Sequence record: KJ190158
DNA from: Escherichia phage FFH2
Strand: one strand, 5' to 3'
Length of the DNA stretch: 64,000 bases
Shown here: positions 1,646 through 7,401 of the stretch, piece after piece
Layout of the letters: every line of letters starts with the position of its first letter
Numbering within the stretch: the first letter of the stretch is position 1
Made by a program: the position numbers and the translations under genes
Notes under the pieces: model-generated
Seen by the model: only the letters and a program-made list of their open reading frames with translations
Told to the model about the DNA's origin: nothing
The model's database searches: none

Positions 1646-2200
1646 TTACTCCCCGCTGTCAATAGCAAGACTCATTGCAATACGGTATGCCTCTTCTAAT
1701 GGTAAGAGTCTCCCCCACACATCCCAACCGACATCAAACTGCCTGCCAAACAACTGCTGTGTGGTTCCGTGAGCATGACCGAACAGTTGGACTGATCCGT
1801 GAGGCTTTCTGTTCCACTTTGCAAACTGGTAATGGCTCATACAGATCAAATTCTTGTTGTGGCGAAGCTCGTAATAATCTACAACCTCATGACCGAACTC
1901 TTTCATAATTCTGACAGTCGTCCTTGTGTCATGGTTACCACGAACAAGAATAATATGTCCGTTCAACATATTTAGAACATCTGGGAGCAATTTGTTGATA
2001 TTCTTATCATTAGTGCACGCAATATCTCCCAAGTGAAACACAGTGTCTGCAGGTGACACAACAGAGTTCCACTTGGTGATGATTCCCGCATTCATACTGT
2101 CAAGATTGTGATCATACTGAGATCTGTGTTTTTGACATGAATCGAACTCCATGACCCGCTGGTGGAGAAAGTGTGTGTCGCTTGTTACAAAGTATTTCAT
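1646..2200 (-). CDS. calcineurin-like metallophosphoesterase (putative RNA 3'-phosphatase of the repair module)
   Basis: Motifs SDTHF (DxH), HLGDIA (GD), GNHD; start reassigned to ATG at 2198-2200 (MKYFVTSDTHF), 7 nt after the kinase stop. Confidence 0.7.
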   Translation of the reverse strand: MKYFVTSDTHFLHQRVMEFDSCQKHRSQYDHNLDSMNAGIITKWNSVVSPADTVFHLGDIACTNDKNINKLLPDVLNMLNGHIILVRGNHDTRTTVRIMKEFGHEVVDYYELRHNKNLICMSHYQFAKWNRKPHGSVQLFGHAHGTTQQLFGRQFDVGWDVWGRLLPLEEAYRIAMSLAIDSGE

Positions 2201-2207
2201 ACATTCC

Positions 2208-2618
2208 TCATTTAAGTTTAATGCAGTTTTTAAGCTGGCGTTCCATACGATCCACAACCCTGTCTGGAACATCATGAATGCTTTTATTACCATGGCGGTT
2301 TTCAACCACGATCACGGTATAACTATACCCATGACTGATCGCCATGTCAATATATTCTTGCACATATTTTTCTTTTGTAAACGTATTACTTACCACGATA
2401 CGGTCGTATCCCATACGCATCATATCTTCTACGTTATCTTTGCACCATTTTGCTGCAAGTGTTACTTTACTTGCATCCCAGTTATAATTTCCATCATCAT
2501 CGTACCAGAACATGTCGTTCTCAAAATGTGGATACAGACCTTCTAAAGATAGCGCATTTGCCAGTGTTGATTTGCCAGACCCTGGCAGACCACGCACGAT
2601 ATATAGCATTTTAGACAT
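2208..2618 (-). CDS. P-loop polynucleotide kinase-like protein (T4 Pnk kinase-domain-like)
   Basis: Walker A GLPGSGKST near N-terminus; start reassigned to ATG 2616-2618 with GGAGG SD 6 nt upstream; directly upstream of the phosphatase. Confidence 0.65.
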   Translation of the reverse strand: MSKMLYIVRGLPGSGKSTLANALSLEGLYPHFENDMFWYDDDGNYNWDASKVTLAAKWCKDNVEDMMRMGYDRIVVSNTFTKEKYVQEYIDMAISHGYSYTVIVVENRHGNKSIHDVPDRVVDRMERQLKNCIKLK

Positions 2619-2718
2619 AGCAATCCTCCGTTTTAATTTTAATGATAGTATACCTAACTGTTTTGTTAATTTCAAGTGTTGACACTAGGTTATTTGTGTG
2701 GCAGGATAGACTGACAAA

Positions 2719-3654
2719 ATGACAAATGAGGAACGTATGATGAAGTATTTTAATGCAGATGACCTAGTAGACAAAGGTCTTGTAACCAGTCGGTATTATC
2801 CAGATCTTGGATTAAAGATCTATAAATATGCCAGAAAAGTATTCTACAACAATCTGTGGCATTTGTCTCCGCGTTTACTGGAGTGCCGAGGTATTGTTGT
2901 TGGCAATGAGGGGAATGTTGTGGCATGGCCTTTCACAAAAGTATTCAACTTAGGAGAAAACTCCACCAATCTACCGGACAGTAAACTTGTTACTGCGGTA
3001 GAGAAAAAGAACGGATTCCTCGGTGTGGTATCATCTCATAAAGGTGAACTATTGTTCTCAACAACCGGGTCTCTTGATTCCCCATATTGTAACCTCGCAA
3101 AAGAAACCATCAGGGAGCAATGTGGTAATTTAGATCTTATCAAGAAGGTTATGGGCAATGAAAACATGACATTCATGTTTGAAATTTGCCACCCTTCAGA
3201 TCCGCATATTGTTCAGGAAGATCATGGCGCATATTTGATAGGTTGCAGATATAATGATTCTGGAATAATGCTACCAGAAGCAGCTTTAGATGGGATTGCC
3301 AAATACCTTGGTGCAAAACGTCCTCACACTGTGCGTGAAATTCCGTTCAGCTATGCAAAAGAATTAGCTGCAGAAACAAGAGGTGAAGGGTATATGATTC
3401 GTAAGCCTTACTACCCTTATGATCTGCAGCTGAAGATCAAGTCTCCATACTATCTGGCACGGAAGGCAGTAATGAGGGGTAAAGCTTGGAAGATTTGGGA
3501 TGATGATATCTTTAAACGTGTTGACGAAGAGTTTTACGGTATGGTAAAATTTATTCGTAGCAACTATACAGAAGATGTGTGGAATTGCTTATTAGAGCAG
3601 GAGCGTCGTGAGATACTGGACTACTATTTCCACAACGAGGACTATATGCAATGA
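2719..3654 (+). CDS. rnlA: RNA ligase, T4 Rnl1 (gene 63) family
   Basis: LLECRGIVV, KVFNLGENS and nucleotidyl-lysine motif VEKKNGFLGVVSS match T4 Rnl1 (ECRGIMF, KFFNLNENP, ILTKEDGSLVS) as recalled. Confidence 0.8.
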   Translation: MTNEERMMKYFNADDLVDKGLVTSRYYPDLGLKIYKYARKVFYNNLWHLSPRLLECRGIVVGNEGNVVAWPFTKVFNLGENSTNLPDSKLVTAVEKKNGFLGVVSSHKGELLFSTTGSLDSPYCNLAKETIREQCGNLDLIKKVMGNENMTFMFEICHPSDPHIVQEDHGAYLIGCRYNDSGIMLPEAALDGIAKYLGAKRPHTVREIPFSYAKELAAETRGEGYMIRKPYYPYDLQLKIKSPYYLARKAVMRGKAWKIWDDDIFKRVDEEFYGMVKFIRSNYTEDVWNCLLEQERREILDYYFHNEDYMQ

Positions 3655-4001
3655 AGAAGTGGATTGTGTGGCTTGATGATTTTAGAGATCCGTCAGATTA
3701 TGGACTCCCAGACGCTCTGTGGCTAAAGAATTCTTCTGAGTTTATGGATTTTCTTAATGATAAGAGAAAGCTCTACAGACGCGTATCTGAGTGGTATTTT
3801 GACAATGATCTAGGTGAAGTGCTTGAAGGGTACGACTGCTTCTCTGCGCTAGAGGAGAAACTTGTATTCGGAAAGCCACCACTTATTGACAACGTGATTA
3901 TTTTCGTGCATACTTCTAATCCATCGGCAGCTCGTAAATTTATGCTTGCTGCTGACTCATTCAAGAAGTTTGGAATAGAGATTAAACAAAACATCTACTG
4001 A
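3651..4001 (+). CDS. hypothetical protein (116 aa), translationally coupled between rnlA and the sirtuin
   Basis: ATGA overlap with rnlA stop; 8 nt before sirtuin start; no recognised motif. Confidence 0.45.
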   Translation: MKKWIVWLDDFRDPSDYGLPDALWLKNSSEFMDFLNDKRKLYRRVSEWYFDNDLGEVLEGYDCFSALEEKLVFGKPPLIDNVIIFVHTSNPSAARKFMLAADSFKKFGIEIKQNIY

Positions 4002-4009
4002 GGACACTT

Positions 4010-4771
4010 ATGCGACGACTGATTATTATCTCCGGTGCTGGTTTGAGCGCTGAATCTGGTATTCCCACTTTCCGATCTGGTAGCACTGCAATGTGGGAGA
4101 ATTTCAGCATCGATGAGGTGTGCAACATCCACACCTTTGCCAAGAACTACTATAAGGTGCATGACTTTTACAATGCACGTCGTGTAGCTCTGGGCAGTGT
4201 TGATCCTAACCTTGCACATCTTCGGATCGCTGAGTGGTATTCCCGCTGGTCTGGTCGTGTGATCAACCTTACCACCAATGTAGATGATTTGCTGGAGCGT
4301 GCTGGTGTAAAACATGAAGATATTTTACATGTCCACGGGTATTTGCCTGAAATCACCTACGAAGATGCTGAAGGTAATGATGTAATTAAAAATATCGGAT
4401 ACACGGAGGTAGATACAGGCAAGTATACCTGGGTTAAGCCCAATGTAGTGTTCTTCGGTGAGGTTGCTCCTAAGTATACAGACATGTATGACCTGTTGAC
4501 ATCTCTCACAAGCAATGATATGGTGATCCTAGTAGGTTGTTCTAACACAGTTATTAATTTTAACTGGGAATTGTTTCCTGCTACTTGTAAAGGCACAAAA
4601 CTGCTGATTGTAAACAAGTATGACTCGCAGAGTGCAGATGGAAGTGGCATTTCACGTAGCGACCTTTATCAATATGAGGATCGCGGGATCCCTGTATGGT
4701 TTAACGGTGCTGTTGACGCTTTCTCTGATAAAGCATTTATTGAAACTGTAGAAAACTTTATGGAACTTTAA
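4010..4771 (+). CDS. Sir2/CobB-family NAD-dependent deacylase (sirtuin)
   Basis: GAGLSAESGIPTFR, FYNARR, PNLAHL, TTNVDDLLERAG, catalytic HVHG, VVFFGE; near-collinear with E. coli CobB as recalled. Confidence 0.8.
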   Translation: MRRLIIISGAGLSAESGIPTFRSGSTAMWENFSIDEVCNIHTFAKNYYKVHDFYNARRVALGSVDPNLAHLRIAEWYSRWSGRVINLTTNVDDLLERAGVKHEDILHVHGYLPEITYEDAEGNDVIKNIGYTEVDTGKYTWVKPNVVFFGEVAPKYTDMYDLLTSLTSNDMVILVGCSNTVINFNWELFPATCKGTKLLIVNKYDSQSADGSGISRSDLYQYEDRGIPVWFNGAVDAFSDKAFIETVENFMEL

Positions 4772-4784
4772 AAGGAGACCTTTA

Positions 4785-5498
4785 ATGCTGAATACTAAAC
4801 TGATCGACAACCTGGAAAAACTGTCTCAGCCTGAAAACTACCTTTGGTCTGCCAACTGGGTGGAAAACTGGAACCGTGTGGCAGCTAAAGTGAAAAAATC
4901 ATACACACCATTCGAATTACAGCTTAGCTTCATTGAGGAAGAGTTCAATGAGGTTTTGGAAGAGCTGGAGAAAGGTGATGGTGGAGATCACCTGCTAAAA
5001 GAGGCCTGCGATCTTCACGTTGTCACAAGTTATGCCGCTTATCTTGTTAATGATAATCACGAAAAGTGGTCAAACCTGTTTGATAATCCACGAGGTCTTA
5101 AGTTCAAGATCGGTGAGTTCTATGATACACTGATCGCTGCGAAAAACACATCCAAGCAAAGAGCGTCAGCTTACCGCTTAGCGGAGTTGTCAACAGCTTT
5201 GCTGTTCCAGCTTCGCGGCGATGTGTGTGGGATGATGCGGAAGGTTCTCAAATCGAATGACAGCAAGTTTGCACGGGTCAACCATCTACGGTATTCACAC
5301 GGTGCCAGTGCAGATATGCCTGCTGAACAACTCATCGAGTTGGAGATTAAAGATCTTGAGCGACGCTTTGATGGTCGATATGAAGGTTTTGTTGCTAAGG
5401 AAGAATTCTACAACGGTAATAAAGTTATCATATTCCTTGACAGTAAAGGTAAGATCATGAAGCCTTCAAGCTTCAAGGATGTAACAGAGTATATTTAA
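4785..5498 (+). CDS. hypothetical protein, possible MazG-like all-alpha NTP pyrophosphohydrolase
   Basis: Acidic EEEFNEVLEELEKGDGGDHLLKEACDL segment resembles the MazG/HisE E-x-x-E ... D motif; weak. Confidence 0.3.
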   Translation: MLNTKLIDNLEKLSQPENYLWSANWVENWNRVAAKVKKSYTPFELQLSFIEEEFNEVLEELEKGDGGDHLLKEACDLHVVTSYAAYLVNDNHEKWSNLFDNPRGLKFKIGEFYDTLIAAKNTSKQRASAYRLAELSTALLFQLRGDVCGMMRKVLKSNDSKFARVNHLRYSHGASADMPAEQLIELEIKDLERRFDGRYEGFVAKEEFYNGNKVIIFLDSKGKIMKPSSFKDVTEYI

Positions 5499-5538
5499 CA
5501 ACATAGCCGGGGATCACCCGGCTTTACTTGTTGTACAA

Positions 5539-5862: not shown

Positions 5863-6118
5863 TCTTGCTAAACCTGTAGAAGCACACCAGTTTGATGGAA
5901 GCTCTTCATCAGTATCTGATCTGCAACGGTGGATTGATACAGGTGTGTTTACATCGTCACCTGTTCGGACCAGAGATATTCGTCGCATGTGTGAGCTTGT
6001 CGAGCCGTTTGGTAACCTGGTCTTGTACCAGGGAGATTGGTTAGTTGACTTTATGGGAGACTGGTTGGTAATGAGTAAAGAAGAGATGTTTAACATTTTT
6101 AAGGAAGAGGCCGAGTAA
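5849..6118 (+). CDS. hypothetical protein (89 aa)
   Basis: Co-oriented ORF; stop overlaps ligase start. Confidence 0.35.
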   Translation: MPLFNLAKPVEAHQFDGSSSSVSDLQRWIDTGVFTSSPVRTRDIRRMCELVEPFGNLVLYQGDWLVDFMGDWLVMSKEEMFNIFKEEAE

Positions 6119-7401
6119 TGCATCAGATCAAAACAACACTGTACGCACTGAACAAAGATGGCAGCTACCAACAGTGGAAAGTATTCACGGATGGTGATAA
6201 GGTTATCGTAGAGTTTGGCAAGCTTGATGGTAAACTGCAATACAAAGAGACGATCTGCACACCTAAGAACGTGGGTCGCGCCAATGAAACTACAGCTGAG
6301 CAACAGGCCGAGCTGGAAGCGATCAGTAAGTGGGAAAAACAGGTCCGACTCGGGTACGTGGAGAGTATGGAAGATTGTGAGCAAGGTGTTGATCTTTTAC
6401 CCATGTTGGTGCATGACTACCTGAAGCGTGGCAAGGCACTTAAATTACCTTGCTGGATCTTGCGTAAGTTAGATGGCCTTCGTCTACTTGTTGTTTTCCA
6501 GAATGGTGAGCCTAAATTTATTTCCCGTGGTAATAAGTCCTACCCTATTCAAGGGAAGCTTCTGGAGCAACTTCGCTCTTTCCACCTAACCACCGGGATT
6601 AAACAGCTCGACGGAGAGCTCTATATTCATGGTCTGCCTCTGCAGAAAATAGTGTCTCTTGCTAAACGGTGGCGCACACAGGAAGAAATTCAGGCCGAGA
6701 TCGATAAAGACTACAAGGCAGATAAAAAACGCCGTCAGGCTGCTATTAAAGCAGGTTTAGCAACATACAAAAACTTCAACAAGATGGACATTCCTGTTGA
6801 TGTTGAGCCTGTTCGTGATGATTTGCGTTACGGAGGGTACTGCAGCTACGACTTAGAGTATCATATTTTCGATATTCCTAGCGATAAGGTGTGGTGGGAT
6901 CCTGAAACAGAGTCTGGACGCTGTAAGGATCTTATGGAGGCAAATGGTGCTATTGCTTCTTTGATGCTTGATCATATTAAGGTTGTTGATGCAGAGCTTG
7001 CATACACAGTTGATCGGTGCGAAGAGTCTGTTGGTATATTTATGTCTGAGGGATATGAAGGTACCATTATGCGTAACTTCTGTGGTAAATATGAGTATGG
7101 TCAGCGAACATCTGAAGCATTGAAATGGAAAAAGTTCAACGACGCAGAGGTGAAAGTTATTGACGTTGAGAAAGATAAGAATGATGAAGGTGTTCTTATC
7201 TGTGTTGACAAGGAAGGTGTTATTGTTAAAATGAAGATGAAAGGCACGCACGAGGAGCGTAGCTATGACAGGATGCAGGAAATGATCGGCAAGTTTGTCA
7301 CCTTCAAATATCAATCAAGGACAGAAGACAACAACTACCAATTCCCTGTCGGTATCTGCGTCCGAAATGTTAACCCAGACACTTGGGAGGTGCTGGAATA
7401 A
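6118..7401 (+). CDS. ATP-dependent DNA ligase
   Basis: Motif I KxDGxR (RKLDGLR), motif III (QLDGELY), motif IV (EGTIMRN), motif V (KWKKF). Confidence 0.75.
   Translation: MHQIKTTLYALNKDGSYQQWKVFTDGDKVIVEFGKLDGKLQYKETICTPKNVGRANETTAEQQAELEAISKWEKQVRLGYVESMEDCEQGVDLLPMLVHDYLKRGKALKLPCWILRKLDGLRLLVVFQNGEPKFISRGNKSYPIQGKLLEQLRSFHLTTGIKQLDGELYIHGLPLQKIVSLAKRWRTQEEIQAEIDKDYKADKKRRQAAIKAGLATYKNFNKMDIPVDVEPVRDDLRYGGYCSYDLEYHIFDIPSDKVWWDPETESGRCKDLMEANGAIASLMLDHIKVVDAELAYTVDRCEESVGIFMSEGYEGTIMRNFCGKYEYGQRTSEALKWKKFNDAEVKVIDVEKDKNDEGVLICVDKEGVIVKMKMKGTHEERSYDRMQEMIGKFVTFKYQSRTEDNNYQFPVGICVRNVNPDTWEVLE

Follow-up and report, generated by a model that had tools for sequence, protein, structure and literature searches.

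What is a sirtuin doing in a phage, set among genes for the repair of RNA? The question is posed by Escherichia phage FFH2 (sequence record KJ190158), of which a stretch of 64,000 nucleotides, called here the window and numbered from its first letter, was analyzed. The original prediction, made from the letters alone, held that a gene for a Sir2-like protein (4010..4771) is coupled, by way of a 116-amino-acid (aa) open reading frame (ORF; 3651..4001), to the gene for an RNA ligase. The coupling is there: the three are plus-strand ORFs with the ends first given, each beginning with ATG, and the TGA stop of the ligase (3652-3654) overlaps the ATG of the 116-aa ORF (3651-3653) within an ATGA at 3651-3654. 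The same prediction called the arrangement unusual, which it is not. Sir2 is annotated in more than 100 near-identical genomes, and the operon was described in 2022, with phage V5 as a prototype. These are genuine, working genes that have been annotated before, and their mechanism has already been interpreted in print, as a prediction. The answer I lean towards, tentatively, is that Sir2 may serve as the NAD+-dependent arm of a phage cassette for the repair of RNA (probably tRNA), as an analog of Tpt1.

The arrangement is tighter than three genes. Ligase, 116-aa ORF, Sir2, and a gene for a MazG-like protein make up a single compact four-gene operon (Table 1). Only 8 nt separate the stop of the 116-aa ORF from the ATG of Sir2 and only 13 nt the stop of Sir2 from the ATG of the fourth gene at 4785, and both spacers carry ribosome-binding sites, GAGGA (which spans the stop codon of the 116-aa ORF) and AAGGAG, respectively. 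Genes for a P-loop kinase and a metallophosphoesterase run divergently from the operon, on the minus strand, across a 100-nt intergenic region.

This is the sirtuin-centered phage RNA-repair neighborhood of type 2 described by Iyer, Burroughs, Anantharaman, and Aravind (2022, Viruses 14:1977; PMC9503650, section 3.7.3), which is said there to be 'prototyped by Escherichia phage V5 and Proteus phage Mydo'. Its gene set consists of a sirtuin, a T4-like RNA ligase, cREC, a kinase for nucleotides, a pyrophosphatase of the MazG superfamily, and a calcineurin-like phosphoesterase (PMC9503650). All six fall within 1646-5498 of the window: the sirtuin, which is of the phage clade, is linked to the other five and to no Macro-domain partner, none being found among the neighbors of Sir2. 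The two gene sets are identical and nothing of substance sets them apart; in phage V5 (rV5), too, the kinase and the phosphoesterase are divergent. The DNA of the operon region is 98.3% identical to that of Escherichia phage LL12 and 97.6% to that of rV5, and on its sequence the window is that of a Vequintavirus. The region is matched by 119 phage records, in most of which Sir2 is already annotated as "Sir2-like protein" or "NAD-dependent deacetylase".

Is the sirtuin an intact one? Its only Pfam match is SIR2 (PF02146; E=6.9e-28, 98.2 bits against a cut-off of 24), and it carries the motifs GAGLS (residues 9-13), FR (21-22), FYNARR (53-58), TTNVDD (88-93), HVHG (107-110), FFGE (148-151), and GCSN (176-179). 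It had been credited with the full set of sirtuin motifs, the catalytic His included. So far as the Rossmann motifs and His109 are concerned this is correct: the alignment that had been proposed as a check shows none of them lost, and G9, A10, G11, F21, R22, N90, D92, and the catalytic H109 are invariant in 55 members of the clade. R58 is also invariant across clade alignments, as are Y54 and R57 in one of them; in another, R57 is changed to Leu only in a jumbo Yersinia phage. The FYNARR of the phage protein aligns with the FYNARR of CobB, which is to say that the Tyr54/Arg57 pair of class III sirtuins is kept. It is the four cysteines of the zinc ribbon that are missing. There is no cysteine at all between residues 39 and 176, and the four zinc-cysteine positions of CobB are occupied by other residues in all 20 diverse phage homologs aligned. 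A conserved segment, IGY...W.VKPNV, stands where CobB has these cysteines, and the 'VYPA' strand of CobB is replaced throughout the clade by 'VINFNWELFP'.

The nearest solved relatives by sequence are E. coli CobB and SIRT5 (E ~3e-21), and E. coli CobB is also the best match to the predicted fold (mean predicted local distance difference test score, pLDDT, 89.6). With the known structures (PDB 1S5P, 6RXQ, 3RIY) the model has in common the Rossmann fold and the small domain, still a beta-sheet despite the loss of the zinc ligands, at template-modeling (TM) scores of 0.74-0.85, as well as the NAD-binding motifs, the catalytic His, and the class III pair. Identity at this level of structural similarity is 26-27% (26-34% to CobB across comparisons). 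The best NCBIfam matches are to deacylase models, though all below threshold: the CobB-type models NF040867 and NF001753 give 104 bits against a cut-off of 320 and 122.6 against 243. Unlike CobB and SIRT5, the clade is restricted to phages. It is found in about 1010 phage records, from several families, and in a scan of 185,579 bacterial and archaeal species at only two loci, both on contigs from metagenome bins, from which the cellular context of the clade cannot be learned. By its sequence, the clade is a phage-specific, zinc-less offshoot of the class III sirtuins. Measured against two relatives, Sir2 has a ratio of nonsynonymous to synonymous substitution rates (dN/dS) of 0.03-0.11, and the 116-aa ORF one of 0-0.08. 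Both are therefore under purifying selection and both are working genes.

The 116-aa protein had been put down as unknown, and here the family is known. It matches Pfam PF20274 (cREC_REC; E=9.1e-14, 52.3 bits against a cut-off of 27), as do all its near-full-length homologs among the matches listed. The structure prediction suggested for it gives a receiver fold (AlphaFold2, pLDDT 92.3), with conserved aspartates and no histidine kinase as partner. The family conserves D9/D10, D51/D53, a motif HTSNP, and K96. It is only 9-19% identical to CheY-like receivers of two-component systems, from which it differs in the HTSNP motif, in having no histidine kinase nearby, and in residing in operons for RNA repair and NAD/ADP-ribose. 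The family was defined in a 2021 jumbo-phage paper by the authors of Iyer et al., and its activity is described in the source papers only as predicted (PMC9503650; 2021 jumbo-phage paper). A sequence search of PDB found nothing significant; no cREC structure has been solved. Searching 1.84 billion representatives with a profile gave about 1400 clusters, mostly of standalone proteins, and Pfam found no second domain in ten longer ones, so that fusions give no clue to the substrate. The longer cREC proteins (P0214, P0231, P0234, P0247, P0248, P0287, P0291, P0292, P0295, P0315) have N- or C-terminal extensions of about 90-185 aa without a Pfam match, which may be uncharacterized partner domains.

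What company does Sir2 keep elsewhere? A survey of 64 Sir2 loci from IMG/VR, together with annotated genomes, gives several answers. The cassette of RNA ligase, kinase, and phosphoesterase surrounds Sir2 at 11 of the 64 loci, with cREC detected in 8 of the 11. The full cassette also flanks Sir2 in Seunavirus PVP-SE1, where it is collinear, with the kinase placed between cREC and Sir2, and at locus L077. At 28 of the 64, those of T5-like phages, the gene next downstream of Sir2 is that of a HAD_SAK_2 "Swiss Army Knife RNA repair" phosphatase; in the T5-like phage Th1 it overlaps the Sir2 stop (match 4e-20). A Nudix-cREC fusion follows directly on Sir2 in a jumbo phage of Yersinia, the Sir2 of which has about 41-43% identity. 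At 5 of the loci an acidic phrog_9509 ORF lies upstream, and at 3 NAMPT and/or NadM lie 2-9 kb away with no repair gene. The linkage of ligase, cREC, and sirtuin that had been put forward for checking in relatives holds, then, at the 8 loci of the 11 where cREC was detected, and fails in Phapecoctavirus ukendt.

Some of these neighbors deserve a word of their own. The phrog_9509 protein is conserved in phi92-like phages (Stephanstirmvirinae), where it precedes or overlaps Sir2 (L001:5522-5995, L005:5444-6013, L039, L041, L042, L045, L046). It is very acidic, 157-195 aa long, with a CxxC...C motif, a poly-Asp/Glu tail, and no Pfam match, features on which the idea of a diverged phosphoesterase was rejected; its role, in company with the zinc-less sirtuin, may be to regulate or to mimic nucleic acid. 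Genes for NAD+ salvage (NAMPT, NadM-Nudix, phosphoribosyl pyrophosphate (PRPP) synthetase) adjoin Sir2 or lie within a few kb of it in several unrelated lineages (L007:792-3966, L068, L073:6080-7525, L077:1-1581); the window has none of them, nor the NADAR domain seen at L077. Behind the Sir2-HAD_SAK pair of T5-like phages come two DUF7415 proteins in tandem (L003:7312-8142, Th1), which are kept at L059:11214-11654, though HAD_SAK was not detected there. The phosphoesterase and RNA ligase genes of PVP-SE1 are separated by an inserted HNH homing-endonuclease gene (L004:3646-4287), and the identity of Sir2 to its homologs is out of step with the relatedness of the genomes, at 56-58% in T5-like phages as against 47-50% in phi92-like. 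The insertion and the pattern of identity together suggest that the genes of the cassette move horizontally.

With this much observed, what might the sirtuin do? Iyer et al. predicted that it removes 2'-phosphates from RNA with NAD+, as KptA/Tpt1 does, and that the associated enzymes open a 2',3'-cyclic phosphate or process ADP-ribose cyclic phosphate; sirtuins with ADP-ribosyltransferase activity are on record (PMC9503650). I infer the substrate, the products, and the biological target along similar lines. Cleavage by anticodon nucleases of the host, or by other RNases that need no metal, would leave 2',3'-cyclic-phosphate and 5'-OH ends. The kinase would phosphorylate the 5' end, the phosphoesterase or cREC would open the cyclic phosphate, and the Rnl1-type ligase would seal the break. 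Wherever a 2'-phosphate was left over, the sirtuin would transfer ADP-ribose to it from NAD+. This would amount to the two chemical steps of Tpt1/KptA, and they run parallel to the usual deacylation by sirtuins: an oxygen nucleophile would attack C1'', and then a His-activated 2''-OH would attack the electrophilic center. cREC would open the resulting ADP-ribose cyclic phosphate, and the product would be degraded by the MazG-like protein, by Nudix in jumbo phages, or by HAD_SAK in T5-like phages. Yeast disposes of ADP-ribose cyclic phosphate by a chain of this kind, Tpt1, Cpd1, Poa1, Ysa1. What the phages would have in common is the ADP-ribosylation of a phosphate monoester at the expense of NAD+, with ring opening, dephosphorylation, and pyrophosphate cleavage to follow. 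It is because the recurring partners (cREC, HAD_SAK, Nudix, MazG-like) all fit this one chain that the model of a Tpt1 analog is adopted here. Modification of proteins, modulation of NAD pools, and action as a decoy, the roles first suggested for Sir2, fit the same partners less well.

The likeness to Tpt1/KptA can only be one of functional analogy. Pfam recognizes SIR2 alone in the phage protein and its fold matches are sirtuins, so homology to KptA/Tpt1 fails; the one fold is that of an ADP-ribosyltransferase and the other a sirtuin Rossmann fold, unrelated to it. What the two share is their genomic company, RNA ligases and cyclic phosphodiesterases. To go from this to specifics, Sir2 would be an RNA 2'-phosphotransferase convergent with Tpt1/KptA, cREC would put a receiver scaffold to use as a cyclic phosphodiesterase of a new class, and the two would form an NAD+-consuming branch of tRNA repair. 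I regard this fuller version as possible, and hold it with more reserve than the general proposal. The loss of the zinc ribbon, the rewriting of 'VYPA', and the want of a Macro partner are compatible with a substrate that is not a peptide, and the Tyr54/Arg57 pair, which binds anions, could hold a phosphate.

A good deal weighs on the other side. Phage T4 counters the anticodon nuclease PrrC with Pnkp and Rnl1, which heal and seal the broken tRNA. FFH2 and T4 are both lytic coliphages with an Rnl1-family ligase, a 5'-kinase, and a 3'-end phosphoesterase, and these three make up a complete T4-style system for healing and sealing, one that yields no 2'-phosphate for a sirtuin to remove. The sets do differ: kinase and phosphatase are separate proteins in FFH2, its phosphatase is calcineurin-like and not HAD, and its cREC, sirtuin, and MazG-like genes have no counterparts in T4. 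Then there is charge. The Sir2 clade is acidic throughout (median isoelectric point (pI) 5.1, net charge about -12, with pI 4.9 for the protein in the window), as is CobB and unlike Tpt1, which is a basic protein. All the residues required for ordinary lysine deacylation are retained. Finally, Sir2 and the repair genes do not always keep company. In ukendt, cREC, phosphoesterase, ligase, and kinase form a module beside tRNA genes, with Sir2 about 33 kb off; the phi92-like phages keep Sir2 apart from the repair module; T5-like phages have Sir2 without an Rnl1-type ligase; Salmonella phages give 289 matches to Sir2 and 14 to the ligase; and Pseudomonas phages give 177 matches to the ligase and do not appear in the list of groups with Sir2. 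No recognizable partner is seen at 13 of the 64 loci (~20%), a Pfam scan of the immediate neighbors of Sir2 there being mostly without a match. The searchable literature yielded no experimental work on phage sirtuins or cREC; the wording "phage Sir2" in a 2026 paper on NARP3 concerns the host system Sir2-HerA.

Some of the same facts would be accommodated if Sir2 were an ordinary NAD+-dependent lysine deacylase of the CobB/SIRT5 type, a deacetylase or desuccinylase acting on host or phage proteins. Metabolic enzymes might be its targets, or the neighboring ligases, which depend on lysine, and its place in the operon would reflect only the timing of expression. I think this unlikely, and of the rivals it is the one to be taken most seriously. 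The closest relatives in sequence and fold are deacylases, as are the top NCBIfam models; the acidic pI is CobB-like; and His109, F21, N90/D92, FFGE, and Tyr54/Arg57 are all conserved. In SIRT5 and CobB that Tyr/Arg pair recognizes succinyl or malonyl groups. Phages of the phi92-like type, and others besides, carry Sir2 unlinked to genes for RNA repair, and in PVP-SE1 it has the RNA ligase module on one side and the DNA ligase on the other. Yet a deacylase would have lost its zinc-ribbon cysteines across the whole clade and, of the pair of strands clamping the peptide, had one rewritten, and it scores far below the cut-offs of the CobB equivalogs. The recurrence of cREC, HAD_SAK, and Nudix-cREC as partners would have no obvious reason, and E. 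coli already supplies CobB.

It might also be supposed that Sir2 is an ADP-ribosyltransferase or NAD+ glycohydrolase used in host takeover or counter-defense. Its target would be a host nuclease or translation factor, or else the pools of NAD+ and nicotinamide, in concert with phage salvage enzymes, while cREC, Nudix, and HAD enzymes cleared away ADP-ribose by-products. ADP-ribosyltransferase activity is on record for sirtuins (PMC9503650), and salvage genes do turn up nearby. At L068 and L073 the gene immediately upstream of Sir2 is NAMPT; the jumbo Yersinia phage has NadM-Nudix and NAMPT 3.5-5 kb upstream; Seunavirus/Mydovirus-like loci have NAMPT and PRPP synthetase no more than about 8 kb from Sir2; and L077 has a NADAR domain 6 kb downstream of Sir2. 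The window, however, has neither NAMPT nor NadM, nor a Macro partner of the SirTM type, and in the larger phages NAMPT for the most part lies far off, on the other strand, where it may reflect a general region of nucleotide metabolism. To consume NAD+ seems counter-productive to a phage, and Sir2 bears no similarity to the models of defense NADases. I consider the idea quite improbable.

The last of these points bears also on the defense effectors with which bacterial sirtuins had been associated in the original prediction, a framing that is rejected, together with that of a decoy: no PADLOC defense model matches Sir2 at E <= 0.01. With the Sir2 NADases DSR1/2, ThsA, Sir2-HerA, and Sir2-pAgo it shares the NAD+-binding domain of the superfamily, but it is encoded by the phage, is closest to class III deacylases, and has no sensor fused or adjacent, its neighbors being genes for RNA repair. 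That Sir2 is a recent capture of host cobB, or a decaying pseudogene without a role in the phage, is excluded, there being nothing beyond general similarity to CobB to recommend it and its divergence (identity 26-34%), purifying selection (dN/dS no higher than 0.11), intact catalytic residues, and conservation across phages, as opposed to two cellular loci, to dismiss it.

If the proposal of a Tpt1 analog is true, sirtuins gain nucleic acids as a class of substrate, and the phage protein would be the first of them with a demonstrated action on a nucleic-acid phosphate. Phages would be running a yeast-like 2'-phosphate route of tRNA repair beside the route of T4, the presence of a zinc-less sirtuin in about 1000 sequenced phages would be explained, and a receiver-fold phosphodiesterase working alongside a sirtuin that acts on RNA would be notable biochemistry. 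It would bear as well on how therapeutic phages of E. coli, Salmonella, and Klebsiella (rV5-like, T5-like, Mydovirus) escape defenses that cleave tRNA or target NAD+. With the genes annotated and the hypothesis in print, there is little new in the finding itself; it is a published prediction and not a discovery made here.

Table 1. Features of the sirtuin locus in the window (KJ190158)
Feature	Coordinates	Strand	Basis and remarks
Calcineurin-like metallophosphoesterase, 184 aa	1646..2200	-	ATG as in rV5 gp076; mechanical ORF to 2305
P-loop nucleotide/polynucleotide kinase-like protein, 136 aa	2208..2618	-	AAA_33, PHROG; mechanical ORF to 2675
Divergent intergenic region, 100 nt	2619..2718	.	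Putative promoters by consensus only
T4 Rnl1-type RNA ligase, 311 aa, first gene of operon	2719..3654	+	RNA_lig_T4_1
cREC, 116 aa, receiver fold, predicted metal-independent cyclic phosphodiesterase	3651..4001	+	PF20274
Zinc-less class III-like sirtuin (Sir2), 253 aa	4010..4771	+	PF02146, fold model, conserved residues
MazG-like nucleotide pyrophosphohydrolase, 237 aa, last gene of operon	4785..5498	+	PHROG 671
Probable bidirectional terminator	5505..5523	both	GC-rich hairpin with T-rich tails; AGCCGGGGATCACCCGGCT reported as terminator-like site
ATP-dependent DNA ligase	6118..7401	+	Pfam DNA_ligase_A_M and OB_2

How sure are the identities of the other genes in the cassette? The RNA ligase matches RNA_lig_T4_1 at 9.3e-15 (55.5 bits against a cut-off of 28.3) and PHROG 562 at 1e-65, has its motif I, KKNG, at residue 96, and evolves at a dN/dS of 0.04-0.05. 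Against TIGR02308, the strict equivalog of T4 RnlA, it scores 37.6 bits with a cut-off of 242, and is therefore a divergent member of the Rnl1 family; a sequence search of PDB found nothing significant. The kinase, the counterpart of rV5 gp077, matches AAA_33 at 4.7e-10, PHROG 2071 at 1e-58, and the polynucleotide kinase family phrog_505 at 5e-10. With its Walker A motif GLPGSGKS at residue 10, it is a candidate 5'-OH kinase. The phosphoesterase, counterpart of rV5 gp076, matches Pfam Metallophos and Metallophos_2 at 4e-6 to 5e-6 and the phosphoesterase family PHROG 547 at 5e-52, with motifs DTH at 8, GD at 58, GNHD at 88, and GHAH at 141, and is a candidate for the enzyme that heals RNA 3' ends. 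The MazG-like protein has no match in Pfam or by sequence in PDB; it matches PHROG 671, 'nucleotide pyrophosphohydrolase', at 5e-22 and is syntenic in PVP-SE1 and ukendt. Its EEFNE at 52 and EACD at 73 fit the metal-binding pattern EExxE...ExxD of MazG. The DNA ligase lies 0.7-2.3 kb downstream of Sir2 in all loci with the full cassette and 6.6-6.9 kb downstream in two partial ones. It is a conserved neighbor of the cassette and not necessarily a member of it.

As to signals, the hairpin that follows the MazG-like gene probably ends the four-gene operon and serves transcription from both directions. The intergenic region presumably holds the promoters, to judge from a TTGACA at about 2680 and, on the minus strand, promoter-like matches at 2675-2647 and 2669-2642.

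No tRNA genes or Rfam families were found within the window; the cluster of six tRNAs in rV5 falls just outside its left end, about 3-4 kb from the operon. Near that end, in a gap poor in ORFs (610-1247), there is a GC-rich island at 690-1000 (53%, as against ~40% on either side). It folds more stably than shuffled sequences (z=-3.4 for the minus strand, -2.95 for the plus), and rV5 has only a 56-aa hypothetical protein annotated here. The island may encode a small structured RNA.

Lastly, among the genomes matching the operon are some 18-25 GenBank records (MG0656xx) labeled 'Campylobacter phage' that are 98-100% identical to rV5-like phages of E. coli, and their Sir2, cREC, and ligase proteins include ones that are 100% identical. 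Going by this identity, either the host labels are wrong or the samples were contaminated, probably.

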